Assembly (NCBI GenBank): GCA_044892525.1
Contig: CM097887.1
Location: forward strand, 94,156,397-94,220,396
From: Schmidtea polychroa
Lineage: Eukaryota
Direction: 5' to 3'
Length of the DNA: 64,000 nucleotides
In this document: in pieces, positions 27,450 to 57,640 of the stretch
How the letters are laid out: every line of letters starts with the position of its first letter
Numbering within the stretch: position 1 is the first letter of the stretch
The notes under the pieces: generated by a model
What the model saw: only the letters and a program-made list of their open reading frames with translations
Databases searched by the model: none
What the model was told of the DNA's origin: nothing
Translations under genes and position numbers: made by a program

Positions 27450-27929
27450 ATGTCGGAAGCTAGAAAACATCTACAACAGTTAAGCAGATTCATCGACATA
27501 GAAAACGATTCCCTAAAGACGTTAAGAGAAAAACTGCAACAAATAGAGACCCTAGAACAACAACGCCACGATGCACCTCTGATATCAAAACAAAATTATT
27601 TAACCAATAAACTGGGAGCAACAAACACCGATACCGACTTGTCTACCCATTACCAATGGATGCAGCAACGACTCGACGACCCCGCTCTGAACATCGAATA
27701 TGTGAGAATACGCGAACAAGTAAAAACTCTGTCTCAGAGAATACGAACATCGATAGTAGAGAAAGCAGCGGCCTTAAGAACTTGTAACATTTGTAAGACG
27801 CGACCTGCCAAAATTCTAATTCTACCTTGTGGACACCTTAGCCATTGTGACGAATGCGCCGTCGGTTTAACGCATTGTTCTTTATGTGTATGTGTGATAA
27901 AGGAGAAGCACACGATTTACTTCAGTTAG
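27450..27929 (+). CDS. Coiled-coil plus C-terminal IAP/MDM2-type C3HC4 RING protein (putative E3 ligase), no BIR seen
   Basis: CNICKTRPAKILILPCGHLSHCDECAVGLTHCSLCVCVIKEKHTIYFS at the extreme C-terminus. Confidence 0.85.
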   Translation: MSEARKHLQQLSRFIDIENDSLKTLREKLQQIETLEQQRHDAPLISKQNYLTNKLGATNTDTDLSTHYQWMQQRLDDPALNIEYVRIREQVKTLSQRIRTSIVEKAAALRTCNICKTRPAKILILPCGHLSHCDECAVGLTHCSLCVCVIKEKHTIYFS

Positions 27930-29893: not shown

Positions 29894-30258
29894 CCGTAGA
29901 AAAATCCACGTGAAAAGACAGAAAAGAGTAAGAAAGAATCACGGATAAACCCAACCTTAGATCTTCAAGTAAGCCAGGAGACGTATTATTTTCAGGAGAC
30001 GAATTAGATCAACTCAAAAGAGGACGATCATTTAGGCAGCAGAGAGGAATATCACAAGGAGCAAAAAGACCCCACAAAACACCGATATACGATCCAGAAA
30101 ACCCCACAGCCAGACATACGCCCAGTCGATCTAGAAGTAGAGAAAGCCTATCCGATATAACAAACAACCTAACCGGGTCAACAGAAGAATTATCCGTCCA
30201 TAGTTTAGCTACATCGCTGGAAAATTTAAAAGGAATAATAGAGTTTCAAGAACCAATC

Positions 30259-33200
30259 ATGACGAATGTGGTAAAAACCGACGAATATAAAGAAAAATTT
30301 AGAGGCGAACCATTCAACGGGAATGCGAATAAGTTGGCAACGTTCATAACAAATTTTGAAGTCTATATCGATGTGTGTGGATGGACATCAGAAGCAATTA
30401 GCAAACGGATGCCGTTGTTTTTATGTGATAGCGCATTGGAAGTGTCTCTAGAAGCAAAAGAAAGAAATACGAAGTTAGACAATTGGGAAAGCATCAAAAC
30501 ATTTTTGAGAAAAACATTCGGAGCCAGCAAACCAATAAATCAAGCCCTAGGAGAATTAGCGAGTAGAAAACAAAGAGCAAATGAATCCATAACGTTGTAT
30601 GCGAGTGAATTGCGAAGATTGGCAAAGAAGGCCATGAACGGAAACTTGCCGGAGGAAAATTTAATTGGTTATTTCATAGAAGGACTGCGCCGAGAAGAGG
30701 TAAGGGCCTCGGTGGGATGTCAAATGTGTAAAACACTAGAGGAAGCCATAGATTGGGCCACGAGATGCGAACTCCACCTCCCGGCACAAATGAATGTCAT
30801 GCAAGAGGAAGGAAGAATCGCAACAGCAACGGTAAAAACTGAAAATGGAGAGAACAGCAATCATGAACCAAAAATGAATCAGTTTATACCCGGTGCGCAT
30901 CAAATTTTCAAACCACCGCAAGGACGATCAAATGGGAATAACAGTGAACGCAACAACCCGAACAATGGGAATAATTTTAATAATCGACGAAACACGAACG
31001 ATAACAAACAATGCCGAACATGCGGTAAACCAGGACATTGGGATAGAAATTGTTACCGAAACGCAAATTGCAATAGGTGTGGACGACGGGGACACACGGA
31101 AAATATATGCCAATTGAGAGGATGTTTTAATTGCGGTCAACCAGGTCATATCTCAAGAGACTGTCGAGAAAGGAGCCAACAACAACGACCACCACAGCGA
31201 AATAATAACTATGCACCAAATCCGCAACGACAAAGTAATCCTAGTGAGGGAAAGCAAATGAATGTGATGCAAGAAATTTCACAAATGAAGCAGATGATGC
31301 AACAAATGATGAGACCGAGACAAGAGCAAGTACCACAACAAACCCAGAATATACGCATGATGAGGAGCACCGAGAATCTTAACAACTATGAAGTACAACA
31401 ACATGCACAAGAATGGCAAAGACTACAAGCTGAAGAAGAGAGGATAAAAAGAGAGCGAATCCAGCAGCGACAAGAACAACCATTACGAATAAATATGATG
31501 AGAATGGTAAGGGAGATAAAAGAGCAATATTGTTACAATTACGGTAAAAATCCAAGAGTTGTACCTATGAGCGAACCAGAGAAACCGAAAGAAACAATTC
31601 CAGCAGCAAAAAAGGAAAATTCAACAACATCGCTAAAAGGAAATCAGAGAATTCAGAAAATATTTTGGAAAAAGATAAAAGATAAAATCGAAAGAGAAAA
31701 TGAGAAAACGAAAACAGAAGCAGAAGCGGAAAATAACGAAAATGAAAAACAGATTAATCATCTAAATCATGATATGATACGAGGATTAGACTCAGAGGAG
31801 CTAACGATACTCGAGAACAAAAAATTAAAGAAAGTACCAAGAATGAGAAATTTACGAATTAATATGATGAGGACAACAAAGAAGGTGTTGTCAACAGATG
31901 ACGATGAGGATTATGTGAGTAGCCTTGGTGGAGAAATGTTACAGTTAAATGAAAATATCGACCAACTAAGAGAAAAGATCGGAGCAGATGAGGATGAAAG
32001 TGAAAGCGACGTGACAAGCGAAAGCGAAGACGAGAATATCGAAATGAAATTGAGAAAAGAAAGAGAAGAAGCGATAAAACAAGTAAAGGAAATACTTCCA
32101 GTGGTGGTAAGAAACCAGGAATTCATTGACATCATACCATACAGACGCTTCACACAAAGGATAATGAAACTAGAAAGAAACGAAAAAGACCTAATACCAA
32201 ACGAGGAAAAAGCGATAATAAAGAAGTATATGGAAAAAATGAAACAAGCGGAGACAACACGCTATGTAATAAAAATCGGAACGAGCAAAGGACTCGAGAG
32301 AATATGGATAAAAAGTGCAGTTACAGACGATCTCTTCGATTGGATAAGAGAACATTTGGGCAGCTCGAGAAAGAAAGAATACCTGTATCAATATCAAGGA
32401 GAACAAATCAAACCAGACATGCACCTAATAGATGCATTGATCTGGCCAGGAGAAACTCAAATATTGAAATTGTATAAAGAGAAGCAACCAGCAAATATTC
32501 ACGAATGGGCTAAAGACGCCAAGGCCGAGTATGACTTTAACATCAAGCTGAAGCTGGAACAAATAAAACAATGCACCTTGCGACGAAATCTAGATAAGCT
32601 AATCAAACAAATTCAAGAACAAGTCGAAGATAACTGGGATTTACTCATAGCAAGACGAACTCCAGACATGCATGAACTAATGAGCCGATTACGAGATACA
32701 GAATTGCTCAGGATGAGCGATTGGAGAACCATAAATTTGATCCACAAATACGGAAGATTAAAAGAAACGCAACCGCAGAAATTAGAAATAACCATATGGT
32801 TACCAAATGAGGAGAAACGACGAATAAAGATGAGTAATCAGAGTACGGTGGATGACTTAGTAACCAAGATAAACCAAGAGATAACGGAAAAAGTACGAAG
32901 CGAGAGTAGCGACGGGATGATAGATGATGTAGTCATGATGTACGATAAAATAATATTACGGGCCGAAGACGACACCTCGCTAAGCGAAATAGGAATGTGG
33001 GATAATCATCAAATCATCAGAATATTGCCCATGGACGAATTCCGAACAAGAGATGTAACATACCAGAAAGAAATACGAGACAGGATGAAAACGCTATATC
33101 AAAAATCAGTAGAGATAATTGAAATTCATCAACAATGGCTGAAAGAAAAAGAGCTTCAAGGAAAATTAAAGAAACTGAGTACCAGATCCTGCAGACGAAC

Positions 33201-33972
33201 CCCATGGGAAAGGATGTGGAATGCGGAAAACAAAGAATGGGAAATCAGGAAAGGGATTTTCGTGGAAACAGACATTGGTGAGATAGAAAGCGAATCAGAA
33301 GAAGAGGAAGATGAACCTCCAAAATACGAAGAGGACGAAATAGAATCGACATCGAACGACGAAAGCGAAACGGATGTTACGTCAGAAAGTGAAACGGAAG
33401 CCAGGCATATTCATGCGATGAGAAAGAAGGAACGCGAATACGCCGACATAGACGGGGAAGAGGCAAAAGAAGCGAGAGAACGAGAAGAGAAGGAAAGATA
33501 TAAACAATTAGGTGATATCTTAGCAACGGGAGCAAAAAATCAAAAACGTCAAGTAATAACATTGGCTAACATCATCCTAAAGACATCAGAGGATATCCAC
33601 AATCTAAGAGAAATGGCGAAAGCGATTGAGGAATACCGACAATATAACGAATGGTACCCAGAACAGCTAGAACAAATTATTAGGAAATGGAGAAACCAGG
33701 AATGGGCACAAGATACCCAGGAAAGGTATCGTATCCGAGTCAAGCATCCCGACAAAAGCATTGAGGATATAGAAGTACATCCAACAACAAAGATCAGAGA
33801 GTTAAAAAAGAAATTAGCATACGAAACTCCATTTCACCTACAACTATTCGGAAAATCGTTGGATGATAATGCAGATGTCGGTATAACACCCATGAGATTG
33901 GGGGAGATCAATGTATTGACAATGGCAGAAACATTGGGAAAACCGATTAAAAAGGAAGAGCAAATCCAGTAA
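30259..33972 (+). CDS. gag: Extended Gag (1237 aa): retrotransposon capsid domain, 3 CCHC zinc knuckles, then acidic/coiled regions and three ubiquitin-like domains
   Basis: Capsid motifs W..IK..L...FG, KQ..NESI..Y..EL..LA and FIEGL. CX2CX4HX4C x3 at 31012-31164. UBL-like segments at ~32260-32478, ~32776-33030 and ~33724-33918. Confidence 0.92.
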   Translation: MTNVVKTDEYKEKFRGEPFNGNANKLATFITNFEVYIDVCGWTSEAISKRMPLFLCDSALEVSLEAKERNTKLDNWESIKTFLRKTFGASKPINQALGELASRKQRANESITLYASELRRLAKKAMNGNLPEENLIGYFIEGLRREEVRASVGCQMCKTLEEAIDWATRCELHLPAQMNVMQEEGRIATATVKTENGENSNHEPKMNQFIPGAHQIFKPPQGRSNGNNSERNNPNNGNNFNNRRNTNDNKQCRTCGKPGHWDRNCYRNANCNRCGRRGHTENICQLRGCFNCGQPGHISRDCRERSQQQRPPQRNNNYAPNPQRQSNPSEGKQMNVMQEISQMKQMMQQMMRPRQEQVPQQTQNIRMMRSTENLNNYEVQQHAQEWQRLQAEEERIKRERIQQRQEQPLRINMMRMVREIKEQYCYNYGKNPRVVPMSEPEKPKETIPAAKKENSTTSLKGNQRIQKIFWKKIKDKIERENEKTKTEAEAENNENEKQINHLNHDMIRGLDSEELTILENKKLKKVPRMRNLRINMMRTTKKVLSTDDDEDYVSSLGGEMLQLNENIDQLREKIGADEDESESDVTSESEDENIEMKLRKEREEAIKQVKEILPVVVRNQEFIDIIPYRRFTQRIMKLERNEKDLIPNEEKAIIKKYMEKMKQAETTRYVIKIGTSKGLERIWIKSAVTDDLFDWIREHLGSSRKKEYLYQYQGEQIKPDMHLIDALIWPGETQILKLYKEKQPANIHEWAKDAKAEYDFNIKLKLEQIKQCTLRRNLDKLIKQIQEQVEDNWDLLIARRTPDMHELMSRLRDTELLRMSDWRTINLIHKYGRLKETQPQKLEITIWLPNEEKRRIKMSNQSTVDDLVTKINQEITEKVRSESSDGMIDDVVMMYDKIILRAEDDTSLSEIGMWDNHQIIRILPMDEFRTRDVTYQKEIRDRMKTLYQKSVEIIEIHQQWLKEKELQGKLKKLSTRSCRRTPWERMWNAENKEWEIRKGIFVETDIGEIESESEEEEDEPPKYEEDEIESTSNDESETDVTSESETEARHIHAMRKKEREYADIDGEEAKEAREREEKERYKQLGDILATGAKNQKRQVITLANIILKTSEDIHNLREMAKAIEEYRQYNEWYPEQLEQIIRKWRNQEWAQDTQERYRIRVKHPDKSIEDIEVHPTTKIRELKKKLAYETPFHLQLFGKSLDDNADVGITPMRLGEINVLTMAETLGKPIKKEEQIQ

Positions 33973-33988
33973 ACCTACGAAAGGTAGC

Positions 33989-34240
33989 TTGAGTACACCA
34001 AGCCCTAACAAAGTGGCGAGTAAATCGAATAAAACCGAGGAAATCGAGGAAATTATATTGGAAGACAGCGATGAAGGAGCTGGAGAAAGATCACCAATTC
34101 TGGTAAGATGGCCGACAGGAGCCGAAATATGGACAACAAGCCAACCATCAACTAGCTATCAGCAGCCAAATAAGCTAAGTATCGAGGAGATTATCGATAA
34201 TACAACAGAAACCGAAACCGACGAACAATTCCAACGATAG
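33989..34240 (+). CDS. Linker ORF, in frame with the downstream polyprotein and separated from it by one TAG
   Basis: Same frame as the 34328 ORF. The frame is open from 33920, and 34241-34327 has no stop. Confidence 0.5.
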   Translation: MSTPSPNKVASKSNKTEEIEEIILEDSDEGAGERSPILVRWPTGAEIWTTSQPSTSYQQPNKLSIEEIIDNTTETETDEQFQR

Positions 34241-34327
34241 AAAGGACCAACGAAAGCAACACCAGAAGGTCAAACGGACAAAATAATAGACGAATGGAAC
34301 GAATGGCTGAGAAACAACGATAGCTCA

Positions 34328-37300
34328 TTGCCAAGAACGGATAATGAGAGAAACCCGAAGTATGAAACGACAAGAGAAGCCGGAACAATGATGGAAAAAC
34401 GGGCAAAAGGAAGACCTAGGAAGCAAGGAGAAAAACCAGAATTCAAAACTAGAGAACAACTGAAACAAGAACAAGGACAAGTCAGATTAGAGAAACTGGA
34501 TAAAATAGTGTGGGACTTAAAAGAAGCTCAACCAACAATCGAGAGAGGCGAAAAATGGATACGAGAGCTAGTAAAAGATATGCTAATAATAACGAACCCA
34601 CAATTGAGACGGTTATGGCAACGAAAAGTAGCAAGCGTAGATGCCAGGCAGCTATGGAATACAATATCCGGAATAATTCCGAAATTAATCAAAGAGAAGA
34701 CAAAAACCACTAAAACCGATTGGGAAGAGACAAGAAGAGTAATTGAACAATTAACTTTAAACGCAAACGACGACGAACATCATTTAGTAGTATTAACGTA
34801 TCTAATGTACAATTTGATGGGATTAGCAGCAAGGAAAATACCTAACAAACAATTCGCAAATCATGTAGAAATGACCGTTACAATCATTGAAAATACAATC
34901 GAACCACATATTATCCGCGCCGGTGGGTGGAAAAGACTCATACAAGCGCCACGAAAAAACGAGCAAGAGAGATCAATGCAAATTCGGTTGAAGAAATTGC
35001 TAAACGAGCTGGAATGGGAATTGCCATTGAAAGACCCAGCCAGCAGAAAAGCGTCGATTAATTCACTAATGATGACCATGATGATATGGATGCTCTGCAC
35101 CAATGGAGCCGCGGGATTTACTATTTACGACTGTGACAATTCGATAATAGGAGAAAGATACTCCCTGAGAGATATAGAGGAATGTAGACAGGCATCTCCG
35201 AATAAATTAGATATAGTAAAAAAGAAAGTCTCCTATCACGTATACCAAGAATCAGATTTCATTAGAACGCAAGCTAGAGAATGCGTAGTATCGAAGAAAG
35301 TGTTGGCATATTACTGTGGACAATACTCATATTCAACCCTTATATTACCGGGATTAGATAAAGAAATAGTACCTATACAACGGGAAGACTGTAAAGAACT
35401 TTTTAGAACCGGAGCGATGAGAATCAGGGATGGAGTAACCATACACGGACAAAGCGGAATGATCAAGACGGAAAGTATCTATGTAGCCGGACGGGTAAAA
35501 TCAACTGATGGATCATGTAACGGAGGCACATATACGATCAGAGGAGAAGTGATCTCGGGAGTAGTAGTAATTGAGTCCTACACAGTGGAGTTGAAGGAAT
35601 ACGAAGCACAATTCGACGCAAACAACTATCAAATGAAAACCAACCCAGCATGCAGAGCTACGGAAAACGTGTGTAGAACGGGAATTTCGACTATAATATA
35701 TGAAGCTAACACCCAAAAATGCCGACTGCAATTGTTAAAAAGTGCTCTATTCAATGAAGTAAAAGGAGAAATTTACGAAAACGAGGATGACGATGAAGAG
35801 AATGGGAACGTAAGGATGCAAAATGGGAAACCAGTCCCGCCATCCCCCAAAGAAAAGAGACTCACAACCCAAAAAACACCAACGGCATTAATTACAGATG
35901 ATCCGGACATCGGCATGAGATTCATTAGAGAAAAAGAGACCACCAAATGTGACAGCATAGTATATCGGACGAACTACGCAGGTATCTACATGTCAAGGCA
36001 AGTAATAGACCGAGCAGTGGGAAAGGTAGCAACAGAGGACGTAAAATTGTACCTGTACGCTAATAACAAAATGGACTTTTTATTTCATCGAGGACAAACG
36101 ACAATGCAAAAAGTGTATTACGATCTTATACAAAATGACTGTTCATTGAATAAAGAGATACTAAAAACAAAATTAGCTATCGCAATAACACACCCAGATA
36201 ACACAATGCCATCACTCCCGTTACCGGATGGACATTTTGGTAGAATGGTGGGAGAGGTAATGTATACATATGCATGTACCAAGACATTTGCGCGACTGCC
36301 AAGAAAGCCCACAATTCCACCAGGGAAATGTGCAAACGAATTAGAAATTAGCTACAAAGGGCGGAACAGATTCGTTCAACCCGTCACTCGAATCATGAAC
36401 CCAATTGGATTCTATCCGAACACCTTTAACTGTTCAAATGCATATGGACCGTTATATGAAAAACCCGATGGGAAATGGATAATGTTACCGGTAAAAACCG
36501 AAGTACAAGAACCTAAAAAGTTTGGATTAATAGAACTCGCAACAGAGCAAGACTTCAAACCAATTGATGTGTCAAAAGCGGGTATGTACTCACCAGAGGA
36601 TTTAGAAACGGCACGATTAAACGTATTATTCCCAGCAAGGCGAGAATCCATTCTATCAAATATGGTTACCATAACTGGGGGAACGAATTTCCAGTCAGGC
36701 CCCAATTACGAACTATTATTGTCACCCGATCATTTTCAACAAGCCACGTCAAACATGATGAAAGCAATGTGGGGAAGATTTCTAGTGTTCGGTCAAATGA
36801 TGGCAGGAATATTGGGAATCATCTTAATTATCCAGATTGTTAGAGTAATATTGACTCAAATGTTGGCGTGTTTTGATATCTATAAGAGAGAAAAGAAAGT
36901 AAATTGGAAGTTGATAGTAGGTTTTTTACCATTTTTGGCAAAAACAATGGTGTTACACGGTCATTCTAAAGATATACACAGAATAAAACGATTAATCAAA
37001 ATACTGACAAAAATAAAAGGGACCGACGAAGAAGTTGGCAGACGATTTCGGAAAACAATGTATGATGAGGCAACGAGAGCGCAACTGAAAAAGAACAAAC
37101 CAAAATTTTTGGACAGATTTAGAAATCGGTCAAACAGCAGCGATAGCGATGATGGCGACAACGGGAATGACAAATACCCATATCCAAGTAGAAACCCGAA
37201 TGAAAAGCCAATAGAAACAGCGCCATATTGGGAGAAAGAAAAAACAAATACCTGGATAGCCAACGGAAGTTACATACCACCAGATATCGTTGGACAACAA

Positions 37301-40300
37301 ACAGCTTTGACCATGACACAAAATATGTATCCACAGTTACCAAGTCAACCAGGGATGAACTATATGCCAACCCGAAGAACGAAAAGCGTAGACCAAGCGG
37401 ATGACGTAAGAACGATAGCAGTGATGAGTTCACCAGGAGGCGCGGCAGTAACAGTCATGATCCAAATCAACGGGAAAGAGACAAGCGCAATGATAGATAC
37501 AGGAGCAAATGTATCAGCAATAGCAATCAACCAAATACCCAGTAAATGTTGGAAAGACATCGAACAAACAACTATCCATATCATCGCATGCAGTAAAGAA
37601 ACCGTAGACGTAGTAGGAAGATGGTGGACTACGTTAAGATATCAAGATAACGAAATTGAAACGTATCTAGCGGTGATACCCAAACTGAGTGAACCATGTA
37701 TAATCGGAACGGATTTAATGCCAGAATTGTTCAAGGAAGTAGTAATCGATTTAACAACAATGTGTCTAAAGGACAAAACGGGTAGAATATGCAAGATGAA
37801 CGCAATAATTAGATGTCCGGAGAAAATAATTGTACCAGCAAAATCACAGATGATATGTCAAATAAAAGTGGATGCAGGAATGGAAGGAGAAGTCATTTTT
37901 GAGCCAAGCAAATCATTCGAAAAACGACGAGAATTACCATTAGCAAGAGAAATAATAACAATAAATGAAGACGGGGAAATACCAATCAACATCACAAATT
38001 TCGAGGAAGAAGATAAAATCATATATGAAAATGAAAGATTGGGTAGATTGACACCCATGATAGACATCGAATTACCAAAAATCACCAACGAAACAACGAA
38101 AGCTGACGAATTATGGATAATTGACAGCACCTTGCTAACGGAAAAAGAAAAGGAAAGACTTCAACAATTATTGATAGAATATAAAGATATATTCGCAATT
38201 TCGGATTTAGATTTGGGAGCATGCGATGTTACATTACACGCAATACCATTAATAGACGAAACTCCAATCGCACTACGTCCATACAAACTAGCAGAGAAGC
38301 AAAAAGAGATAGCCGAAGCAGAAGTACAAAAAATGCTAGATGCACAAGTGATCGAACCAAGTTGTTCGCCATGGCAATTTCCCGTAGTCATGGTGAAGAA
38401 AAAAGATGGTACTCAGAGATTCTGTATCGATTATCGGAAATTAAATGCAGTAACAAAAAGAGACACATACCCGTTACCAGACATCAATGAGATGTTACTT
38501 ATGTTACAGGGGGCCGCATATTTTACATCTTTAGATCTGAAAAGCGGATATTGGCAGATCAAAGTCAAAGAGGAAGACAAAGAGAAAACAGCATTCACAT
38601 TGGGCCGAGATCTATACCAATTCAGGAAAATGCCGTTCGGACTGACCAATGCCCCAGCATCATTCCAGAGATGTATGAATTTTGTCACACATGGGATCAA
38701 GCAGTGTATGGTATATATTGATGATTTATTAATATATTCAGCAACATTCGAACAACATTTGGAAGATATCAGAAACGTGTTCGTTCGATTACGACAATGG
38801 AAATTGAAACTCAAACCATCCAAATGTGATTGGGCAAAAGAAAAGGTTACGTTCTTAGGACACATAGTGTCAGCAAAAGGCAAAGAACCAGATCCAAGAA
38901 ACATAGAAAAAATAAAAACATGTCCAGCACCAAAAACTGTCACCCAAGTTCAAGAATTTCTCGGATTATGCGGATATTATCGAAAATTCATCAAAAACTA
39001 TGCAGGTATTGCGAAACCAATACAGGACTTAGTGAAAAAGGATATTTCATTTATTTGGGGTGCAGAACAACAAAAAGCATTTGAGACATTGCGAGATAAA
39101 TTAATTGAAGCTCCAATACTGGTACATCCTGATTTCAAGAAACCGTTCTTATTAGCAACAGATGCAAGTGGATATGCAGCCGGAGCAATATTAGGACAAC
39201 TGGATGAAGAGGGAAAAGAAAGAGTGATTGGATACTACAGTAGAACGTTTAAAAAGCATGAGAAAAACTATTCCGTAACCGAGAGAGAAGCATTAGCAAT
39301 TATACAAGCGATTAAACATTTTCGATATTTGTTGTGGGGACACGAAATATGTATCACAACAGATCATCAACCACTAGTATGGCTTGGCCAACACAAAGAA
39401 GCTTCAAGTAGATTGATGCGATGGGCAATGCAGTTACAAGAATATTCACCGTTCATAAAATTCAAAGCGGGAAGAGCGAATGCCAATGCGGATTGCATGT
39501 CCAGATTTATCTTTCCAGATTTAGTAGATCACGAAATGCAACGAATATGTCTGATGGTAGCAGAAGATTTAGATTTTTGCCAATTACGGAAAGACCAGCA
39601 AGAGGATACAGAGTTGAAGCAAATCATTGAATATGTGAAAACAGGGAAAGCAGAGGTATATGAGAAAGATCAAAAATTGAAGGAGCATATGGATAAACAT
39701 CGACATCGATATATTATCGAGAAAGACTGGTTGTTGATAATGGATGGAGAAAAAAGACTGATGTGCATCCCCGAGAATAGACGTAAAGAGCTGCTAACAC
39801 AATACCATGACGGAAGACTCGGAGGACATATGTCATCTAAAAAGACGTTGGCACGAATGAAACAAAAGTATTTTTGGCCCACATTGACCGAGGATGTAAC
39901 GGAATGGGTGAAAAATTGCATAACTTGCGCAACCAGAAAAAACACGGGAACCAAATGGAAGGCACCATTAAAGCCAATGCCAGTACCAGCAGAACCAATG
40001 ACCATGATATCAATGGACGTGGTCGGTCCACTACCAGAATCAGATAGAGGAAATATATATATATTGGTAATCACAGATTATTTGACAAAATTCCCCGAAG
40101 CATTCGCAATGGCAGATCAGAAAGCAAGAACAATCGCGAAAATACTAGTAGAGGAGATATGCTGTCGATATGGAACACCAAAACAGATATTAACTGACCA
40201 AGGAACAAATTTCATGAGCGAAATAATGAGCGAAGTCACTAACTACTTCAAGATCGCAAAATTAAGAACATCACCGTACCATCCACAAACTAATGGTATG

Positions 40301-43300
40301 ACAGAAAGATTCAATGGAACACTGATTCAAATGTTATCAAATTATGTCGATCGTCATCAACGCGACTGGGACGAGTATATAAAATTATGTTTAATGGCTT
40401 ACAGAATGTCGATTCACGCGTCCACAAAGATGAGTCCGTTCAAGTTGATGTACGGCAGAGAATGCAATATGCCAATGGATTTGGAGTATCAGCCACCAAT
40501 ATCACAGTATATGGAAATAGACGATTATGTAACCAAGTTCAAGGAAAGAATGCAGGAAATCTGGGAAACTGCAGGATTGAATATAAAATTTTATCAAGAA
40601 AGTTACAAAGATCTACATGATAGAAAGAAAAACGTCAAACAGCATACGTTTCAAACAGGCGATTGGGTGATGATCGAAACACCAGAATTAGTTCCAGGAA
40701 CCACCAAAAAATTACAACGAAACGGTAAAGGTCCGTATGAGATCCTATTCATCGGAGAAACCAATGTAAGAGTACGATTGGTAAACAACCCCTTCACAAG
40801 GCCAATATATGTAAATGTGGCACGATGTAAGCCAATACCGAAAACAGCCACCAGCCAGCCGGAAGGGCGAACATTAACAACAAGATCACAAACATATAGA
40901 ATAAATATGTTACAGCAGATAAACGAACCAACAGGTAACCGATTGGGGATACAACCATCAGAAGCCGAGAAAATCATAAAGGAAGTGAAAGCTAAAATGC
41001 CCGGATGGGCAGAAGACAGATTAGATTTTGAGATATTGGGAGGTCTGCTAACAATGATCGAAAATTATGCAAACCGAGAAAGAACACACCCATTACTGAG
41101 GGTAGTAAAAAGTCAATGGCCTATATTATTTACGATCACAGACCATTATGGAGATACACCGCTGCACAAACTTTTAAAGGTCGGGAATAATGAACAAATA
41201 CTGGAAACGATCGAAGCATTTCGCGATTGTAACGTTTCAACAGATCAAGAAAATAACCAAGGTTACACTCCACTAATGATAGCAGCCAATCGGGATAAAG
41301 CTAAAGATATTATCATCGCATTACTTGAAACTGGGTCAAAGATAACCACACAAGACCACAACCAGAAAAATGCACTACATCATGCAATCGAAGGGAAAAG
41401 TACGGAAGCCTTCATAATCTTAATAGATCTATTATCATATGAGGATAATAGGGAGATAGGAAACATGTATGACGGGTTATTAACTGCAATCAAAGAGAAA
41501 TTAATAACAATTACTGGAATACTAATTGCATGGAGGAACCCGATCAAAAACGATTATATGGTAGATATAAACGAAACATTTACCAAAGGAGAAAATACCT
41601 TGATGAGGGAAGCGATGAGAGGACATCATCTATTCGAAATTCCAAATCAACTACTACAACGTGGCATAAAATTTTCAAATCACAAAGACGAACAACTAAT
41701 CAGAAAACGAATTACCAACTTCGAAAAAGCTATATCTCAATTTTCCGATAAAGTACAAGTAAAATTTTGGGAAACCGTGAGTGTATTATATATGATGGAA
41801 ACTATGAACAACATTCGAGAAAACTACCTAAGTATTATTCAAGTGCTTACGGCGGAAGAACGCATTAACAGTTCAAACAAGAAAAAGATAAAAATAAAGA
41901 AAGTAAAAACAAGAGAGTCTGAGGAGCAAGTCGATCAAATAATAACCGAGATAGCAACAACAAGTAAACCCAAGATAATAAACTCAGACCAGGAGATAAT
42001 AATACGCAAAGCCAAAGAGGTGTTCTTTGAAGAAATGCAAGATCTATCCGATGAAGCGATACTAGCAAAAATAACAAAAACAGTACACACCTACGCAAGA
42101 GACCAGACCACAAATCTAGACATAGAAAAAATAAAAACATTTATACCACTAGCATTCACCTTACCAACAAAAGACTCAAGAACACCATTACAACAAGCCA
42201 TTTTAGCAGCAAAAGAAAACAGAGCAATAACCATCATAAGAATCCTTGGAGACTTCGGAGAAGAATCTAATGCAAAAAATGAACAAGGAGAAACAGCAAT
42301 AATGTATGCAGCCATAACAAATATACACCCGAAAACATTACATATACTACATCGATCGGGATCAAGACTGGACGAAATATCAAACGAAGGAAATTCTACC
42401 ATGGATTGGGCAACCATACAACCAAACTTGGAAATGATTAGATTCATTTGTAAAAATGCTACAAGAACTGAGGTAGAAAATATCTGTAAAAACACGTCAC
42501 AGTTCCAATGGAACACGATACGGATGAACTTAGAAGCCATGAAGTTATTGCTAACATGGAAAATACCGCAAAGCAATAAATATGCAATAAATATAAATGA
42601 GTTCTACGAAAACGGAGAAAATGCTATGGTTAAAAATACACTAACAAAAGGAGGAACTCCGAAAATCATAATGATCGTATTGAACAGAGAAGACCTCAAA
42701 TTCACGCAAAATCTAAACGAACAAAAGCGGATTGGAAAACATCGCCGTATACAATTGAGAGAACTGGTAAAAGAATGGAATAGAAAGAGACATGTAGCAA
42801 CAGGCAGAAAAGAGTTTGAATTCGAGGCAAAATTAGCAAGGAATAGAGTGTTAACGGCATATCGCAAATTATTGAACGATATAAATGTCGAGGACGACAT
42901 TTCAAACGATAGCGGGGGAGATAAAGACGATAAAGACGACGATAATAATGAACAAGGTCGAAACGAGAATGGAGAGAAAGAGAAATCAGAGGAAAATAAT
43001 CAAGGGAATAACGACTCAGGTATAAAAAAGGAGGAAAATAAACCGGGAAGCCGAACAAAGGAAGAGGAAAAGACGAATAATGGGAAACAGAGGGTATGCC
43101 CACTTTTTACCAACAAGGAAATGGAAACAAATATGATGGTAATGATACTCATACTAACAATGATAGAAATGATAACAGCCCACGGTGGAATGGGAACGAT
43201 AAAAGAAGCCAAGGAAACGGAAAACAAAGACAACAAGGAGAAGGAACTAAAGCAAGAAAAGAAGAAGCAAGTACGAGAGCAACAATGGGATTTAAAAGAA

Positions 43301-44134
43301 GAATGGGATCTAAAAGAAAGGTGCATACTAGGAAGATGTATGTCGAGAGCATATCGGAGACTAGTATTAATAAATGAAGATACAGAACCGATAACGGAAG
43401 TAAGAATACAAGAAGCATACCGGAATCGAGACGGGAAGAGAATAACTAAAGTCAAAGGGAAGGAGGTACACCTGAGAAAAGGAGGTGAGGTAGTGATAAC
43501 GCAACTCCAGCCAAGAAAAGAACACAAAGTCTGCATTTCAAGATTAGGACCGGGTGAAGACTGTCTACAATATGTAACACAGCAACAACCTCCAAAAGAA
43601 TACACAGTATGCATCTGGAGAAACGATACAGCGAGAGAATGTCGACGGTACCCTGGGAAAAGAGGGAGGAAAAGAAAAATCAATGACGAAAAAGATGAGC
43701 AAGGAAAACGCAAGAAAACCGATGAGAAATATCAAGACAATTATGTATCCGAGGAGGAGATGGAGAAAATACAAAGAATGGCAAAGGAAGGTATGAACGA
43801 GGAAATAGCAAGAATACGAGGAATGATGAAAGGAAATGGCAAAGACGGTAATCTAAAAAGCACAGAAGCAATATCAACAATAACGAACAAGGAAAAAGCG
43901 GAAATTATAAGCATAAAACAGATGATGTGGATCAGCGGCATAATAATAACAGGGGCCTTTTTAATCATAACCGGGGGGACAATAAAAATAATCAAAGATA
44001 GGCGGCATCGCGGAGAACTAGAAATGGCCAGAATAAGAAATTTTCAACATCGTATAAGACGACCAAGTAATATCAAGCAGGAACAGTGGGTGGAGGCCTG
44101 GAATGCTCAGCGCCCTCCAAGCTCACGTATATAG
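34328..44134 (+). CDS. pol: Bcl2-like/Env/Pol/ankyrin polyprotein (3268 aa)
   Basis: BH2-like HIIRAGGW ~34906; signal peptide ~35050-35116; glycoprotein 35117-~36770 and TM ~36770-36873; protease DTG 37496; RT YIDD 38714; RNase H TDAS ~39160; integrase HHCC 39806-39928 and D..D(35)E at 40016/40196/40304; GPY 40729; ankyrins ~41140-41430 and ~42170-42450; C-terminal TM 43922-43993. Confidence 0.95.
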   Translation: MPRTDNERNPKYETTREAGTMMEKRAKGRPRKQGEKPEFKTREQLKQEQGQVRLEKLDKIVWDLKEAQPTIERGEKWIRELVKDMLIITNPQLRRLWQRKVASVDARQLWNTISGIIPKLIKEKTKTTKTDWEETRRVIEQLTLNANDDEHHLVVLTYLMYNLMGLAARKIPNKQFANHVEMTVTIIENTIEPHIIRAGGWKRLIQAPRKNEQERSMQIRLKKLLNELEWELPLKDPASRKASINSLMMTMMIWMLCTNGAAGFTIYDCDNSIIGERYSLRDIEECRQASPNKLDIVKKKVSYHVYQESDFIRTQARECVVSKKVLAYYCGQYSYSTLILPGLDKEIVPIQREDCKELFRTGAMRIRDGVTIHGQSGMIKTESIYVAGRVKSTDGSCNGGTYTIRGEVISGVVVIESYTVELKEYEAQFDANNYQMKTNPACRATENVCRTGISTIIYEANTQKCRLQLLKSALFNEVKGEIYENEDDDEENGNVRMQNGKPVPPSPKEKRLTTQKTPTALITDDPDIGMRFIREKETTKCDSIVYRTNYAGIYMSRQVIDRAVGKVATEDVKLYLYANNKMDFLFHRGQTTMQKVYYDLIQNDCSLNKEILKTKLAIAITHPDNTMPSLPLPDGHFGRMVGEVMYTYACTKTFARLPRKPTIPPGKCANELEISYKGRNRFVQPVTRIMNPIGFYPNTFNCSNAYGPLYEKPDGKWIMLPVKTEVQEPKKFGLIELATEQDFKPIDVSKAGMYSPEDLETARLNVLFPARRESILSNMVTITGGTNFQSGPNYELLLSPDHFQQATSNMMKAMWGRFLVFGQMMAGILGIILIIQIVRVILTQMLACFDIYKREKKVNWKLIVGFLPFLAKTMVLHGHSKDIHRIKRLIKILTKIKGTDEEVGRRFRKTMYDEATRAQLKKNKPKFLDRFRNRSNSSDSDDGDNGNDKYPYPSRNPNEKPIETAPYWEKEKTNTWIANGSYIPPDIVGQQTALTMTQNMYPQLPSQPGMNYMPTRRTKSVDQADDVRTIAVMSSPGGAAVTVMIQINGKETSAMIDTGANVSAIAINQIPSKCWKDIEQTTIHIIACSKETVDVVGRWWTTLRYQDNEIETYLAVIPKLSEPCIIGTDLMPELFKEVVIDLTTMCLKDKTGRICKMNAIIRCPEKIIVPAKSQMICQIKVDAGMEGEVIFEPSKSFEKRRELPLAREIITINEDGEIPINITNFEEEDKIIYENERLGRLTPMIDIELPKITNETTKADELWIIDSTLLTEKEKERLQQLLIEYKDIFAISDLDLGACDVTLHAIPLIDETPIALRPYKLAEKQKEIAEAEVQKMLDAQVIEPSCSPWQFPVVMVKKKDGTQRFCIDYRKLNAVTKRDTYPLPDINEMLLMLQGAAYFTSLDLKSGYWQIKVKEEDKEKTAFTLGRDLYQFRKMPFGLTNAPASFQRCMNFVTHGIKQCMVYIDDLLIYSATFEQHLEDIRNVFVRLRQWKLKLKPSKCDWAKEKVTFLGHIVSAKGKEPDPRNIEKIKTCPAPKTVTQVQEFLGLCGYYRKFIKNYAGIAKPIQDLVKKDISFIWGAEQQKAFETLRDKLIEAPILVHPDFKKPFLLATDASGYAAGAILGQLDEEGKERVIGYYSRTFKKHEKNYSVTEREALAIIQAIKHFRYLLWGHEICITTDHQPLVWLGQHKEASSRLMRWAMQLQEYSPFIKFKAGRANANADCMSRFIFPDLVDHEMQRICLMVAEDLDFCQLRKDQQEDTELKQIIEYVKTGKAEVYEKDQKLKEHMDKHRHRYIIEKDWLLIMDGEKRLMCIPENRRKELLTQYHDGRLGGHMSSKKTLARMKQKYFWPTLTEDVTEWVKNCITCATRKNTGTKWKAPLKPMPVPAEPMTMISMDVVGPLPESDRGNIYILVITDYLTKFPEAFAMADQKARTIAKILVEEICCRYGTPKQILTDQGTNFMSEIMSEVTNYFKIAKLRTSPYHPQTNGMTERFNGTLIQMLSNYVDRHQRDWDEYIKLCLMAYRMSIHASTKMSPFKLMYGRECNMPMDLEYQPPISQYMEIDDYVTKFKERMQEIWETAGLNIKFYQESYKDLHDRKKNVKQHTFQTGDWVMIETPELVPGTTKKLQRNGKGPYEILFIGETNVRVRLVNNPFTRPIYVNVARCKPIPKTATSQPEGRTLTTRSQTYRINMLQQINEPTGNRLGIQPSEAEKIIKEVKAKMPGWAEDRLDFEILGGLLTMIENYANRERTHPLLRVVKSQWPILFTITDHYGDTPLHKLLKVGNNEQILETIEAFRDCNVSTDQENNQGYTPLMIAANRDKAKDIIIALLETGSKITTQDHNQKNALHHAIEGKSTEAFIILIDLLSYEDNREIGNMYDGLLTAIKEKLITITGILIAWRNPIKNDYMVDINETFTKGENTLMREAMRGHHLFEIPNQLLQRGIKFSNHKDEQLIRKRITNFEKAISQFSDKVQVKFWETVSVLYMMETMNNIRENYLSIIQVLTAEERINSSNKKKIKIKKVKTRESEEQVDQIITEIATTSKPKIINSDQEIIIRKAKEVFFEEMQDLSDEAILAKITKTVHTYARDQTTNLDIEKIKTFIPLAFTLPTKDSRTPLQQAILAAKENRAITIIRILGDFGEESNAKNEQGETAIMYAAITNIHPKTLHILHRSGSRLDEISNEGNSTMDWATIQPNLEMIRFICKNATRTEVENICKNTSQFQWNTIRMNLEAMKLLLTWKIPQSNKYAININEFYENGENAMVKNTLTKGGTPKIIMIVLNREDLKFTQNLNEQKRIGKHRRIQLRELVKEWNRKRHVATGRKEFEFEAKLARNRVLTAYRKLLNDINVEDDISNDSGGDKDDKDDDNNEQGRNENGEKEKSEENNQGNNDSGIKKEENKPGSRTKEEEKTNNGKQRVCPLFTNKEMETNMMVMILILTMIEMITAHGGMGTIKEAKETENKDNKEKELKQEKKKQVREQQWDLKEEWDLKERCILGRCMSRAYRRLVLINEDTEPITEVRIQEAYRNRDGKRITKVKGKEVHLRKGGEVVITQLQPRKEHKVCISRLGPGEDCLQYVTQQQPPKEYTVCIWRNDTARECRRYPGKRGRKRKINDEKDEQGKRKKTDEKYQDNYVSEEEMEKIQRMAKEGMNEEIARIRGMMKGNGKDGNLKSTEAISTITNKEKAEIISIKQMMWISGIIITGAFLIITGGTIKIIKDRRHRGELEMARIRNFQHRIRRPSNIKQEQWVEAWNAQRPPSSRI

Positions 44135-44751: not shown

Positions 44752-46140
44752 ATGGATAAGCGACAACGAGAAGAATTCAAAGAAATTGTTGAACAAGTCA
44801 GAAAGTCCACCACAATTCGAATACACAACCATGTAACGTGTGGAATATGCAAGAACTTATTAAGAGAACCTCACCAAACCCGATGTGGATGCAGAATGTG
44901 CAGAGAATGTGTAGAGGAGGTAATAAAGAAGGGACCACAATGGTGCCCAGTATGCAAAGAAACAATGATAACAAGTTTGGGAGATACAAACGAAGATAAA
45001 GCAGCTGTAAAAGATATGATGAATGCAAACCTAGGATGCAAAAACACCCCATGTAATTGGCGAGGAGTGATATGGGAAGTGAGGCAACATATGGAGCAAT
45101 GTGAATATAAAATCAGTCAATGCAAACGTTGCCAAGAAGAGATTAAAGTCAATGAAGAAGCAGAACATCAAAGTCGATGCGAAGAAAGACTGGAGAAATG
45201 TGAGTATTGCGGAGAAACCGACACCTGGAAAAAACTAATCAGTCAACATCACAACATACAAGAGGAGAAAGTGTGCGCCGAATTCAGAGGAGAATGCCCC
45301 AACAAATGCGATAAACCCGGAGTAATAAAACTCGCTCAACATCTGAAAGAATGTGAAAGGAAAAAGATAAGGTGTGTGTTAGGAAAATGGGGATGTCAGA
45401 AACAATTACACCGAGGGGAATTACCCCAACATCTAGCAGAAAACGTATCAACACACGCGGAAATATGGTCAACGGTATTACAAGAAAACGAAAGGAAAAC
45501 CGAAAACTTAGAAAGAGAAATAGTCTCGCTAAAAGCGTTGGTAAAAGAACTATTGGAAGAAAAGGAAGCATTCGAAGAGGCGAGAACAAGCACAAAGATA
45601 CAAACAGATCTAGTAGAAACTAGCAACATTATGGTGAAAGAACTACATCAAAAAGTAAGCGAATTAAACCTCAACGAATTAATACCAACGGCTCCATACA
45701 TATGGAAGATAACGGGAGTAAAAGAGAAGATGCAGAGAGCGAGAAATGGAAAGGATACAACATTACTAAGTCCAGCATTCTACTCATGGAAAAACGGGTA
45801 TAAAATGAAAATGAAAGCATACCCCAATGGGGATGGAAGTGCATATGGAACGCATTTCTCAGTATTCTTCTTGATATGCAAAGGGCTATACGACGAGTTA
45901 ATAGAATGGCCATTCAAAGCAAAAATAGACCTCGCAATGATGAACTATCAAAGTATACATGAACAGAGTTTCCATACAGCGGGAAACCTCGTATGTTACC
46001 AAAGGCCCTTGGAAGAAGAAGGATCAGCAACCGGAGCACCGAACTTCATCCTACAGCGGAAAGTAGAAGACATGACGAAAAACGACACCATATACATAAA
46101 AATAGCGGTGAGGCGAGACGGTAAGAGTAGGACTGAGTAG
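44752..46140 (+). CDS. TRAF: Intronless TRAF-family protein (RING, TRAF zinc fingers, coiled coil, MATH/TRAF-C)
   Basis: RING 44839-44955; repeated HxxxC..C..C zinc fingers; MATH from 45694 (YIWKI..SPAFY..GYKM..YPNGDG..GTHFSVF..GLYD..WPF..G...FI). Confidence 0.95.
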   Translation: MDKRQREEFKEIVEQVRKSTTIRIHNHVTCGICKNLLREPHQTRCGCRMCRECVEEVIKKGPQWCPVCKETMITSLGDTNEDKAAVKDMMNANLGCKNTPCNWRGVIWEVRQHMEQCEYKISQCKRCQEEIKVNEEAEHQSRCEERLEKCEYCGETDTWKKLISQHHNIQEEKVCAEFRGECPNKCDKPGVIKLAQHLKECERKKIRCVLGKWGCQKQLHRGELPQHLAENVSTHAEIWSTVLQENERKTENLEREIVSLKALVKELLEEKEAFEEARTSTKIQTDLVETSNIMVKELHQKVSELNLNELIPTAPYIWKITGVKEKMQRARNGKDTTLLSPAFYSWKNGYKMKMKAYPNGDGSAYGTHFSVFFLICKGLYDELIEWPFKAKIDLAMMNYQSIHEQSFHTAGNLVCYQRPLEEEGSATGAPNFILQRKVEDMTKNDTIYIKIAVRRDGKSRTE

Positions 46141-46316: not shown

Positions 46317-47393
46317 ATGCGACGTCAAGTTAATAATATCATTGTTCAGATCAAGATGACACAAGAAGGAACTGAAGCCCCAAACCACGAAACCAAAGTC
46401 AATAAAATCCATAAGGGAAAATGGGTCAAAGTAATGTTACAATTGACGAACCAGACCCGCAACCACCTCGAAGAGGCCAGGGAATACGAGAATAACAAAT
46501 ATCAGTGGTTAGTAAACAATTTGAGAGCCGAAGCAGAAGCATGCAAAAGAGCCTCTAAGTGGGCATCATTGGAAAACACTCGCCAAGAAGCGCACAGCCA
46601 CTATTTGAAACAGTTAGTGCAGGAAGCACGGAAACGATTGACGGACGAAAACACAAAACGAGAAGCAGAAAAACAAAAGGAAGGAAGGAAAATGAATCAC
46701 CTATTGGCAGAAGCCCGAAACTGGAAGCGACAGAACAACGAGATGAAAAAAGAAATGAAAGAATTGCCTATGAGATTAGAATACGAAAGCGAACAAGGCA
46801 AATGGGAGGAAAATCTGGTCATAAGAGAAGAACTGAAACGGCTCAGAAAGATTGCGGCCCGAAGCCAAACATGGCAGACCAAAGCCATGGAATTTGAAAG
46901 ACATCTAGCCATGAAAATCTCCATAAGGGAGCACGAGAATGCCGCAATGGAAGAACTGATACTTCAACAGTCAGGACGACTCGTGGAACTGGTAAATAAG
47001 GTCGCAGAACTAGAACGAGATGTCAACGGATACCAAGGAGCTCTGGAGCAGAGAAATATGGTACTGGCGGGGAAAAACAAAAAGTTAGAAAACGAAAGGA
47101 AAATGTATAACGAAAATCTCAAAAATCTGGAGATAGAGATCAAGAAATGGGAAAACGGCGAAAAAGCGGAAGAGCTAGAAAAGCAGATAGAGGTAAGAGA
47201 CGATGAAACCAGGTATCTAACATACCTGTTGGACGAGGAACTTAACGTGTCAAGAGCACTAAGAGACGAAGTGCAAGAACTTAGAGCGCAGATTCCCCGG
47301 TACTACATCCCATTTGATCCCATCGCACTCCAATTACAAACGCCAGTAGAGAGCGATGAAGGATATGTAGGCCAGGAAGAGACCTTTGTATAA
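46317..47393 (+). CDS. Long coiled-coil (SMC/myosin-like composition) cargo protein
   Basis: 358-aa open frame with heptad periodicity; no catalytic motif recognised. Confidence 0.7.
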   Translation: MRRQVNNIIVQIKMTQEGTEAPNHETKVNKIHKGKWVKVMLQLTNQTRNHLEEAREYENNKYQWLVNNLRAEAEACKRASKWASLENTRQEAHSHYLKQLVQEARKRLTDENTKREAEKQKEGRKMNHLLAEARNWKRQNNEMKKEMKELPMRLEYESEQGKWEENLVIREELKRLRKIAARSQTWQTKAMEFERHLAMKISIREHENAAMEELILQQSGRLVELVNKVAELERDVNGYQGALEQRNMVLAGKNKKLENERKMYNENLKNLEIEIKKWENGEKAEELEKQIEVRDDETRYLTYLLDEELNVSRALRDEVQELRAQIPRYYIPFDPIALQLQTPVESDEGYVGQEETFV

Positions 47394-47508
47394 AGATAAA
47401 GGGAAAGATAAAAAATACAAAATCGGGACCTGTATCCCAACCAAAAAAATTAATGGTACAGTAAAAGTATGAAAGGGACTGTAACCCTGATTATAAAATT
47501 ACCTATAA

Positions 47509-48252
47509 ATGTATAAGTATAAGCCGCACTGTAGCGCACTATTAATTGTAAATATTGTAGAAATGAAAATAGAAGAAATATCCACCATGACCGAGCTAGA
47601 GGAGGGAGAAATTGAAGTTGATGAAGTGGAGAGGAAGAAAACTATCAAAGAAGAATTACAAGAAGAGAAACAGGAAAACGAAAGATTAGTAGAAAGGTGG
47701 AGAGATAATCGAAAAATGATTAAAGTATTGAAAAGAGAATACACCTTGCTAGAAGAAGTAAAGAAAGAAGTAGAGGAAGAAAACGAATGGCTTCACGATC
47801 AAAGAAAGCGAGGGAGAAATTGGGAAAAGATCGCGGAAGAATTATGGCAGGAGAGGGCCAGTCGAAAGGCCGACGAAGTGATTAGTGACTATTGGAAAAC
47901 CGAGGCACGGAAACACCAAGAAAGCCTGAAAGAGTTACAACTCCAACTACACCAAAAACAGAAAGAATGTGAGATAATGAGACGAATGAACAACAAATAC
48001 CAGGAAATAGACAACGAAGAAGACGGGGAAAGGGAAAATGATTTTCTACAGATAATGAACCATAAAAACCTCGAAAGAGCAACACAAGAAATAAAAGCAC
48101 TAAAAGAAAAAATAATAACCCTAGAGCAACAGTTAGACGAAAGAGACAAACAATTAAAAGTACTACCCGAATTGAGAAAACGAGTAATAAAAGCAGAAAC
48201 GAGAGTGATGAGAACATCCGAGAAAACCCGTAAAAAGAAAACCCGGCAATAA
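47509..48252 (+). CDS. Coiled-coil cargo protein (likely start ATG 47563)
   Basis: E/K/R-rich heptads. Confidence 0.7.
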   Translation: MYKYKPHCSALLIVNIVEMKIEEISTMTELEEGEIEVDEVERKKTIKEELQEEKQENERLVERWRDNRKMIKVLKREYTLLEEVKKEVEEENEWLHDQRKRGRNWEKIAEELWQERASRKADEVISDYWKTEARKHQESLKELQLQLHQKQKECEIMRRMNNKYQEIDNEEDGERENDFLQIMNHKNLERATQEIKALKEKIITLEQQLDERDKQLKVLPELRKRVIKAETRVMRTSEKTRKKKTRQ

Positions 48253-48307
48253 TTAAAGATGAATGATCAATGTAAATAATTGTAAATAAAAATTTTCGTA
48301 TAGTAGT

Positions 48308-49172: not shown

Positions 49173-50155
49173 TTTGTTGGGCCAAGCTCCGAAGGTGTTG
49201 GAAAAGCGAACCGAAGAAGGGATAGAGTAAAATAAAATAAAAACATATAAAAAATACGAGAAACATAGGAGGAAACAAATTAAATATCCAACAAAGAAAT
49301 TAGAAAAACTAAATAAAATAACAAAACCCCTAAAGGAAAAATAAGACAAGAGGGAAGGCACCTAATAAACGACAGTAAAAGAAAAAAAAAATAAAATAGC
49401 AGAAAATTTAAGAAAAATGAACAAAAGTAAAAGAAGAAAAACAAAATAAAAATAAAAAATCATCCATAAGGCTAATTAAAACAAAAAATGAAGTTACAAT
49501 AAAATAGCAACAAAACCACAAGAAAAACAGATAAAATAATAAAAAATAGGAAAATAAATAAAATAATAATAAAAATAGGAAAAAAGTCATTAAAATATAC
49601 CTGATTACATTAAAAAAACATAAAAATCATAATAAACAATAATATTACATGCAAGTCGCGTCCTGATTGGACGAAAAGTAATATATAAAGAGCGACAAAA
49701 ATCTGTAGAGTATCATTCTAACCCGAAACTCTACAGGTAAAATTTTATCCTTTATATAATCATTCTAACCCGAAACTCTACAGGAAAACTAGGAGCAACT
49801 CACAAGCACAGATTATTGAACCATATTCATTCATCGGATAATATATACATTTAACGGAGATCGAATTCAGTTCAGTCGAACGAGTCCATCTAAAGAAAAC
49901 TTATATTATTTTGATTTAACACCTTCGGAGATTTTTGGTAAATTATGTTTTAGATTTTAGCATGATGATTTAAATATTTATTATGAATTTAACAAGTCGC
50001 TTATACTTCAATAAATTTCATATTTTAAACGAAGGTGTTGCTTTCTCTCTATGATGCTGGCGACGACGTCCTCTGGAGTCCGGGTATGATGCAGTTGGAT
50101 TTTTCGAACGTCCTACGGAGAGGACATTTACGAATATGAACTCAGGAAATTGAAG
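49173..50155 (+). repeat. 3' LTR-like direct repeat (983 bp)
   Basis: Appears identical to 22841-23823 by eye. Preceded by gggacgcaattttaacggg (PPT-region-like). Abuts the truncated polB. Confidence 0.8.
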
Positions 50156-53002: not shown

Positions 53003-53146
53003 TTTTAAAAGAATTTTTTGGTTGGATACGATGTTTTGGTTTTGATATTAATTTTTATTTTTTTTAAATCTAAAAGTGATCAGGCGACCTAGATCATTAT
53101 GAATTAGGTAATCTGATATTCTTATAACATTAAATCCTTAAGACCA

Positions 53147-53392
53147 AGTAGTGAGGAATCTATGCACCCCGTTACCTTTTCTCGGAATTACTAATCTATA
53201 AATACATCTATTCCGAACTTTTTTACTTTTAAGGGAAGAAATTAAGGGTTAATGGCAATAGGGGACAAAGTTTAAAAGTTAAAAAAAGTGAAGAATATGG
53301 GGTAAAAAAGCATATAAATGTGGAAAATATGGGTCAATAACGCTGTTTTTTTTTAGGGTGGGGGTGCTGGGGTGCATAGATTCCTCACTACT
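53147..53392. mobile_element. Duplicate of the 246-bp AGTAGT..ACTACT mini-TIR element
   Basis: Same TIRs as 2613-2858. Confidence 0.7.
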
Positions 53393-57200: not shown

Positions 57201-57563
57201 ATTTAACTGATATTATATTTAAAAATATAAATTGTAAATTTTTATGAATGACCCCCCCCCTCAAAATCATACAGTCATTACCCATTACCTAAGCATACTA
57301 AATTAACTTATCTTAATATATATTTAACTTATATTATATTTTAAAATATAAATTGAAAATTTTCATAAATGACCCCCCTTCAAATCATGTAGCCATTAAC
57401 TATTCCTTAGGTATACTGAATTGTATCATCTTCGTATAGAGTTAAATTATATTTCAAACCAAAAAAATAATTCCATAAATTTTCGTAAATGATCCCCCCC
57501 ATATGTAGTAATCCTATAAAAATATAAATTTACATTCATTATTATTATTATTACCGTTATTAA

Positions 57564-57640
<77 letters not shown>

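Follow-up and report, generated by a model that had tools for sequence, protein, structure and literature searches.

A BCL2-like motif has been noted in the Burro elements, with Env placed in frame after BCL2 and before the protease (Arkhipova and Yushenova 2019, PMC6431247), and both the BCL2-like domain and its position before Env are thus already known. Section 7 of that article makes no mention of a signal peptide, membrane tethering, loss of BH1 or relatives devoid of the domain. A literature search returned no title or abstract opening on a Burro signal peptide or a Bcl-2 anchor; Grohme 2018, Jurka 2007 and Lee 2026, with their supplements, may cover the subject. A protective effect against apoptosis in stem cells is reported for the Burro1 RING-BIR protein (extract of PMC13465017, citing Lee 2026), and BURRO1 transcripts rise upon piwi knockdown (extract of PMC8532177).

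Viral proteins offer further points of comparison. According to the accessible portion of PMC7601889, the cytosolic domain of flavivirus anchor C and of HCV core (core-E1) ends in a hydrophobic stretch which is also the signal of the next envelope protein, such that the capsid anchor serves both purposes, and the signal of HCV core is cut again inside the membrane. The poxviral proteins A52, B14 and N1 are Bcl-2-like domains without a canonical BH1 (PMC3847314 and PMC11209288, as excerpted).

The locus compared here lies in a stretch of 64,000 nucleotides from Schmidtea polychroa (contig CM097887.1), hereafter the window. It holds a gypsy-type LTR element with the published Burro layout, in which Gag, ubiquitin-like, Bcl-2-like, Env and Pol parts share one frame (Table 1). 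The likeness to Burro/GYPSM1 comprises a single polyprotein of about 4,800 aa (4,873 published; 4,724-4,811 in copies analyzed here), Gag with three CCHC knuckles, ubiquitin-like and BCL2-like domains, Env between BCL2 and protease, ankyrin repeats and MATH/TRAF cargo. In contrast to Burro/GYPSM1, MATH/TRAF occupies a separate downstream ORF, a motif scan of the RING accessory ORF (27450..27929) reveals no separate BIR-type motif, and the Burro type is assigned by layout rather than by reference sequences. With Bcl-xL and Bcl-2 (PF00452) the element domain shares alignable helices 4-8 and the GGW of BH2, yet it lacks the BH1 Trp and Gly, shows no BH3 dyad in its likely helix 2, is embedded in a polyprotein and is followed by a predicted cleavable signal. 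The arrangement recalls anchor C and core-E1, whereas the upstream domain there is the capsid and here it is a captured host-like domain whose processing is predicted only. It also resembles the poxviral proteins in that a virus-like element harbors a Bcl-2-like domain devoid of a canonical BH1, yet those are free and cytosolic with no membrane region in the excerpted sources, and no sequence match, nor any structure match with a weak model, to them was found here.

We somewhat favor the reading that this domain, standing before Env's own signal, is tethered on the cytosolic face of the ER and serves as a likely non-canonical cell-survival factor. The comparison yields a predicted cut site and a predicted location in the ER, a likely size for the fragment, the loss of the BH1 Trp throughout the lineage, and relatives naturally devoid of the domain as controls. 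If true, the reading would represent a clear-cut example of a captured gene whose membrane anchor was supplied by a viral signal peptide. Should both the tether and the pro-survival role hold, the element family, whose IAP-like protein reportedly aids planarian regeneration in the source as excerpted, would possess a second device against cell death.

The element and its copies

The LTR pair shares 983 bp (22841-23823 and 49173-50155) at 100% identity, and bounds a 27-kb element (22841-50155), which thus exceeds 25 kb as in the Burro type. A TGG-starting word at 23931, directly after the 5' LTR, is presumably primer-binding-site-like. The ubiquitin-like domain near the end of the Gag frame is a weak match to PF00240 (E 0.02), and hydropathy places a membrane helix of Env at 36797-36853. 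Two further hydrophobic stretches (43133-43192, which is signal-like, and 43922-43993) lie at the end of the polyprotein, within 37412..44134; they flank a Cys-containing segment and possibly delimit a second small membrane protein. Three accessory ORFs inside the element (46317-48943; 358, 247 and 211 aa) appear coiled-coil-like by eye and have no convincing Pfam match.

At least 150 copies of the Bcl-2-like domain, at 92-100% identity, occur in the genome (150 scored of 974 candidates, 30 fetched). Frames of 4,724-4,811 aa occur in 15 of the 30 fetched copies, and in 21 of 30 the frame stays open over at least 630 aa ahead of BH2; the family thus encodes a single Gag-Bcl2-Env-Pol polyprotein. 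The single ORF of the Burro type, extending from Gag (three CCHC) through the ubiquitin-like, BCL2-like, Env and PR-RT-RH-IN parts to the ankyrin repeats, is found in the family and broken in the window copy. Because of the frameshift near 33,950 and the stop at 34238-34240, the apparent start Met at 34388 is likely a property of the window copy. An independent small ORF from this Met was considered and rejected, as most copies read through from Gag.

The Bcl-2-like domain is under purifying selection, like protease-RT. Uncorrected pN/pS between the window and eight diverged copies is 0.04-0.06 in the 135-codon core of the domain and 0.03-0.06 in protease-RT, and two near copies exhibit no amino-acid changes against 6-8 silent ones in this core. 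The flanking linkers are equally constrained (pN/pS 0.02-0.08), and selection thus does not single out Bcl-2 function. No GT..AG joint was present among the 15 joints listed from contigs of three sequencing runs, a result which is uninformative on splicing and expression.

At the edge of the element, a 921-aa ORF on the minus strand (50128-52893) adjoins the truncated end of the 3' LTR; Pfam gives no match for it at E 0.1, and its motifs suggest a possible fragment of a Polinton-type DNA polymerase. The ends of the window (1-13587 and 50534-64000) share 97-100% identity and the following copy of the element is located 50.3 kb downstream, which places the element within a tandem duplication of about 50 kb.

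Table 1. Coordinates of the element's features within the window
Feature	Coordinates	Strand	Remarks
5' LTR	22841..23930	+	Right end approximate; 22841-23823 identical to 49173-50155
Accessory ORF with C-terminal RING finger	27450..27929	+	PF13920, E 4.3e-8
Gag frame with retrotransposon gag, three CCHC knuckles and, near its end, a ubiquitin-like domain	29932..33972	+	PF03732, PF00098
Breaks in the window copy	33940..34240	+	Frameshift near 33,950; in-frame stop 34238-34240
GRPRK basic word, presumably AT-hook-like (our label)	34409..34423	+	Also before Env in relatives without Bcl-2
Bcl-2-like domain	34556..34945	+	Helices 4-8 (about 34727-34945) sequence-supported
BH1 position, DDEH replacing NWGR	34769..34780	+	From alignments; constant in 8/8 diverged copies shown
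BH2, HIIRAGGW	34907..34930	+	GW invariant in 12/12 alignment rows
Predicted internal signal peptide of Env	35045..35116	+	Basic RK, 11-residue Met-rich core, A-A-G before predicted cut
Env, Monjiviricetes-type fusion glycoprotein ectodomain, 14 Cys	35117..36853	+	PF24664, E 1.9e-72
Protease, RT, RNase H, integrase, ankyrin repeats	37412..44134	+	Pfam; same frame as Bcl-2-like domain and Env
TRAF-like accessory ORF (RING, MATH)	44752..46140	+	PF21355, E 2.7e-25; PF00097
3' LTR	49173..50155	+	Right end cut short where other sequence begins

The Bcl-2-like domain and its BH motifs

All motifs quoted in the preliminary description are present in the plus-strand frame 34241-44134, namely ETRRV (34727), NDDEHH (34766), TIIENT (34880), GGWKR (34922) and SINSL (35054), with GAAG ending at 35116 in the same frame. 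Taken alone, the window domain scores 15.3 bits against PF00452 (E 0.03-0.05), below the gathering score of 31.4, while some copies of a sister family reach 32-33 bits; a PDB sequence search with the window domain gave no match. An alignment of 12 rows was assembled from the window, three other families of this genome and seven library proteins (from 51 matches); it includes no cellular protein, and its rows are 11-25% identical to the window. The element-only profile derived from it matches Bcl-xL at E 4.8e-7 over helices 4-8, which bears out the assignment of these helices in the preliminary description, and a second, trimmed element profile does so at E 1.7e-5. PF00452 is matched at E<=1 by 11 of the 12 rows, with a best value of 3.4e-7. 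Chance similarity to Bcl-2 was rejected, since a leave-one-out profile of the other 11 element domains recovers the window domain at E 4.9e-13, versus E 1 for the reversed protein. The resemblance covers helices 4-8 together with BH2, and in terms of sequence the domain is almost certainly homologous to Bcl-2. Word-index searches with the domain or its alignment found no homologues, and an Atlas search gave no usable match to the domain; neither outcome is a sign of novelty.

The region before helix 4 aligns in the profiles among the elements and not to Bcl-xL, and its two helices are likely helix 1 and helix 2. BH4 is described as an aliphatic pair, two residues, an aromatic and an aliphatic residue, and BH3 as Leu-x3-Gly/Ala/Ser-Asp (PMC3847314, in extract). 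The likely helix 1, in the part that profiles leave unaligned to Bcl-xL, reads LVKDML, with Met at the aromatic place of BH4, and no Gly/Ala/Ser-Asp dyad of BH3 is seen in the window's likely helix 2, which is likewise unaligned to Bcl-xL.

The clear BH2 reported earlier is confirmed (Table 1). The replacement of the BH1 NWGR was recognized correctly as divergence and placed one residue too far downstream: in the alignments N-W-G-R pairs with D-D-E-H, rather than with the claimed DEHH, and the window lacks NWGR itself. Eleven element domains extend to BH1 (P0022, which starts after it, was dropped); none of them retains Trp or Gly, and a basic fourth residue is found in eight. In 11 other Bcl-2-like rows of this genome, Trp is kept in ten and Gly in only two. 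Loss of Gly is common in this genome and thus not special to the element, as nine of these 11 other rows also lack it; it is the loss of the BH1 Trp which, in the sequences compared, appears to mark the element lineage.

AlphaFold was uninformative with a single sequence (pLDDT 46), and with 20 rows it produced a weak model (pLDDT 53, pTM 0.43), in which confidence is 60-75 only at residues 81-150 of 212 and below 50 in the helices before residue 80. With this weak model, Foldseek found no match at E<=0.001; its highest probabilities fell on Bax and Bcl-xL (0.66-0.72), yet with E of about 1-2. Of the 50 rows listed by VIA-align, eight are Bcl-2-family chains (Z 6.0-6.6, with an rmsd of 2.4-3.5 over 70-89 residues), which score below unrelated helical proteins at up to Z 7.6. 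A search of viral structures with the weak model gave no match at E<=0.001, and poxviral Bcl-2-fold proteins are absent among the 50 rows listed. Homology is supported for helices 4-8, and the whole eight-helix bundle is a candidate fold.

The predicted Env signal peptide and the probable history of the insertion

A hydrophobic stretch had been placed about 40 aa behind BH2, and it is indeed found there, with 44 residues from GGW to SINSL. The same preliminary description regarded it as a Bcl-2 membrane anchor that may double as the Env signal peptide. The latter part of this proposal stands: with its basic n-region, short hydrophobic core and small residues at -3 and -1, located at the start of Env, the stretch is very probably Env's own predicted signal peptide, and signal peptidase would likely cut after AAG. 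Of 30 Env-preceding segments, 28 have small residues at positions -3 and -1 relative to the Env start, compared to 2-15 of 30 at offsets 1-6, and in all eight diverged copies shown A or V occupies -3 and G occupies -1. Stand-alone Env proteins with an N-terminal signal measure 645-663 aa, and in P0052, P0053 and P0055 such a signal directly precedes the same xxxYDC/FDC start. The PF24664 match begins within the signal stretch in P0003, P0004 and L061.

The supposed origin from a Bcl-2 anchor, by contrast, was rejected. The same signal precedes Env in relatives without the domain (Bcl-minus) and in genes that encode Env alone, which makes it unlikely that the stretch is a recycled Bcl-2 tail, and the signal is likely older than the Bcl-2 insertion. 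In relatives lacking the GGW word before Env, the domain-profile match is also absent (14 of 14) and most retain the signal; some of them are fragments with only 120-160 residues upstream. A comparison of 11 Bcl-plus with 11 Bcl-minus rows exhibits no detectable difference in signal hydrophobicity (p 0.36-0.39). GGW and the core are separated by 29 to 61 aa among Bcl-plus rows and by 48 in the window. Since the window signal has a short core (11 residues) which, over 11 residues, is weaker (KD 2.05) than that of any other of the 11 Bcl-plus rows, this signal may not be a lasting anchor.

Cleavage had also been expected to leave a tail-anchored Bcl-2-like protein. In that form the expectation is not supported, since the domain lies inside a Gag-Env-Pol polyprotein and the predicted piece would measure about 400 aa or more; rather than ending the protein with a C-terminal membrane helix, the frame runs on for about 3,000 aa. 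The idea of an anchor plausibly survives in reversed form, whereby the Env signal would serve as an anchor, instead of a Bcl-2 anchor serving as a signal.

In a tree of Env (28 rows; P0011, P0019 and P0022, being too short, omitted), Bcl-plus and Bcl-minus rows interleave, with four changes; the deeper rows are without the domain, and the Bcl-plus P0008 pairs with the Bcl-minus P0004 at 99/98. In a second tree a single branch (SH-aLRT 97) separates the 11 element domains from the 11 other Bcl-2-like rows of the genome, and the search for a donor found no host row among these 11 that groups with the element domains. Both trees comprise short, long-branched rows. The simplest reading of these sequences would be one capture in front of the older signal, followed by later losses. 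As a separate observation, the Bcl-minus relatives P0003, P0004 and P0005 contain up to three aspartic-protease-like domains in one polyprotein.

Proposed processing and function

In the sequence of events that we envisage, the domain would have been captured once, inserted between a basic GRPxK word and the older Env signal, and lost in some lineages. The signal would enter the ER during translation with its N-side cytosolic, and signal peptidase would cut after AAG. The Env ectodomain would pass into the lumen, and the Env membrane helix would return Pol to the cytosol. By this topology the upstream piece would remain tethered by the signal stretch after cleavage, and the domain would enter the ER rather than the mitochondria; at least transient tethering of this kind is predicted as probable. 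The signal may be cut again inside the membrane, as that of HCV core is.

Enclosed as it is in the Gag-Env-Pol polyprotein, the domain would depend on a protease cut that lies some 330 residues or more ahead of BH2. A protease-site-like word (INMM type) occurs eight times in Gag versus 0.9 in shuffles, and is also found at both protease ends and behind the integrase; it was derived from these same sequences, is unenriched in the other three families (two matches each) and reads TNVL in one subfamily. The nearest such words upstream give pieces of about 400 or 570 aa; the element protease would cut at an INVL- or IHAM-like site, and the signal would retain a piece of about 400-570 aa.

With the BH1 Trp and Gly gone, the domain would dampen host death signaling by means other than the textbook BH3 groove. 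This pro-survival role is a tentative prediction, favored by the RING and TRAF-like cargo of the element and by the reported block of apoptosis by the Burro1 RING-BIR protein. A more detailed account, which we consider doubtful as a whole, would have a host Bcl-2 gene captured once, its tail dropped and the Env signal borrowed, such that an ER-tethered survival factor is made one-for-one with Env and keeps stem cells alive via a surface other than the BH3 groove, alongside RING/IAP and TRAF cargo.

The captured bundle might instead be an assembly part, a membrane-side structural link between Gag and Env at the ER with no role in the control of death, for which the foamy virus leader peptide provides a comparison as a domain linking Gag to Env at the ER. 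We judge this rather unlikely. In its favor, the domain is placed on the membrane where Gag meets Env; none of the 11 element domains has the BH1 Trp or Gly and the BH3 dyad is unseen in the likely helix 2 of the window, selection is uniform along the polyprotein, and flavivirus anchor C is a precedent (PMC7601889, in the portion accessible). Assembly nevertheless does not need the domain, since the close relatives P0003-P0006 share the Gag-Env-Pol layout without it, P0004 being the sister of the Bcl-plus P0008.

A second intramembrane cut could also free the domain to inhibit NF-kB or related innate signaling via a non-groove surface, in the manner of poxviral proteins. The closed groove and missing membrane region of A52 and B14, which share the Bcl-2 fold (PMC3847314, excerpted), are in line with this, as are the short and weak core of the window signal and the TRAF-like, RING and ankyrin cargo of the same element. 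The sequence, however, resembles cellular Bcl-xL, and the absence of poxviral Bcl-2-fold proteins among the 50 viral-structure rows listed, weak evidence in view of the weak model, points the same way; we consider the proposal unlikely.

An ordinary viral Bcl-2, tail-anchored at mitochondria, binding host BH3 in its groove and reusing its own tail as the Env signal, would account for the retained BH2 and for a GGW-to-core distance of 29-30 aa in two lineages, near the approximately 28 aa of this genome's Bcl-2-like gene with its own tail, and could bind BH3 despite lost motifs, as DPV022 binds BH3 without recognizable BH motifs (PMC11209288, excerpted), but it is very improbable given the signal common to Bcl-minus relatives and stand-alone Env, the variable spacing, the ER entry implied by an Env signal and the BH1 losses in all 11 domains.

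Separately from the preferred reading of an ER-tethered survival factor, other Bcl-2-like loci of this genome were recorded. L044 (G000:C2:75680131-75680739, minus strand) is a single-copy Bcl-2-like gene whose BH1 reads ISAKR, without Trp, and it does not group with the element domains. L046, L049, L060, L073 and L074 (e.g. G000:C1:50168106-50168414) belong to a second dispersed repeat, with copies 97-99% identical over at least 3 kb, which contains a short Bcl-2-like gene, apparently of two exons, that keeps the BH1 Trp and has a C-terminal hydrophobic tail of its own. L031-L037 (G000:C4:89.95-90.83 Mb) are seven near-identical copies of a Bcl-2-family exon within 0.9 Mb, with an intact NWGR and a BH3-like word.
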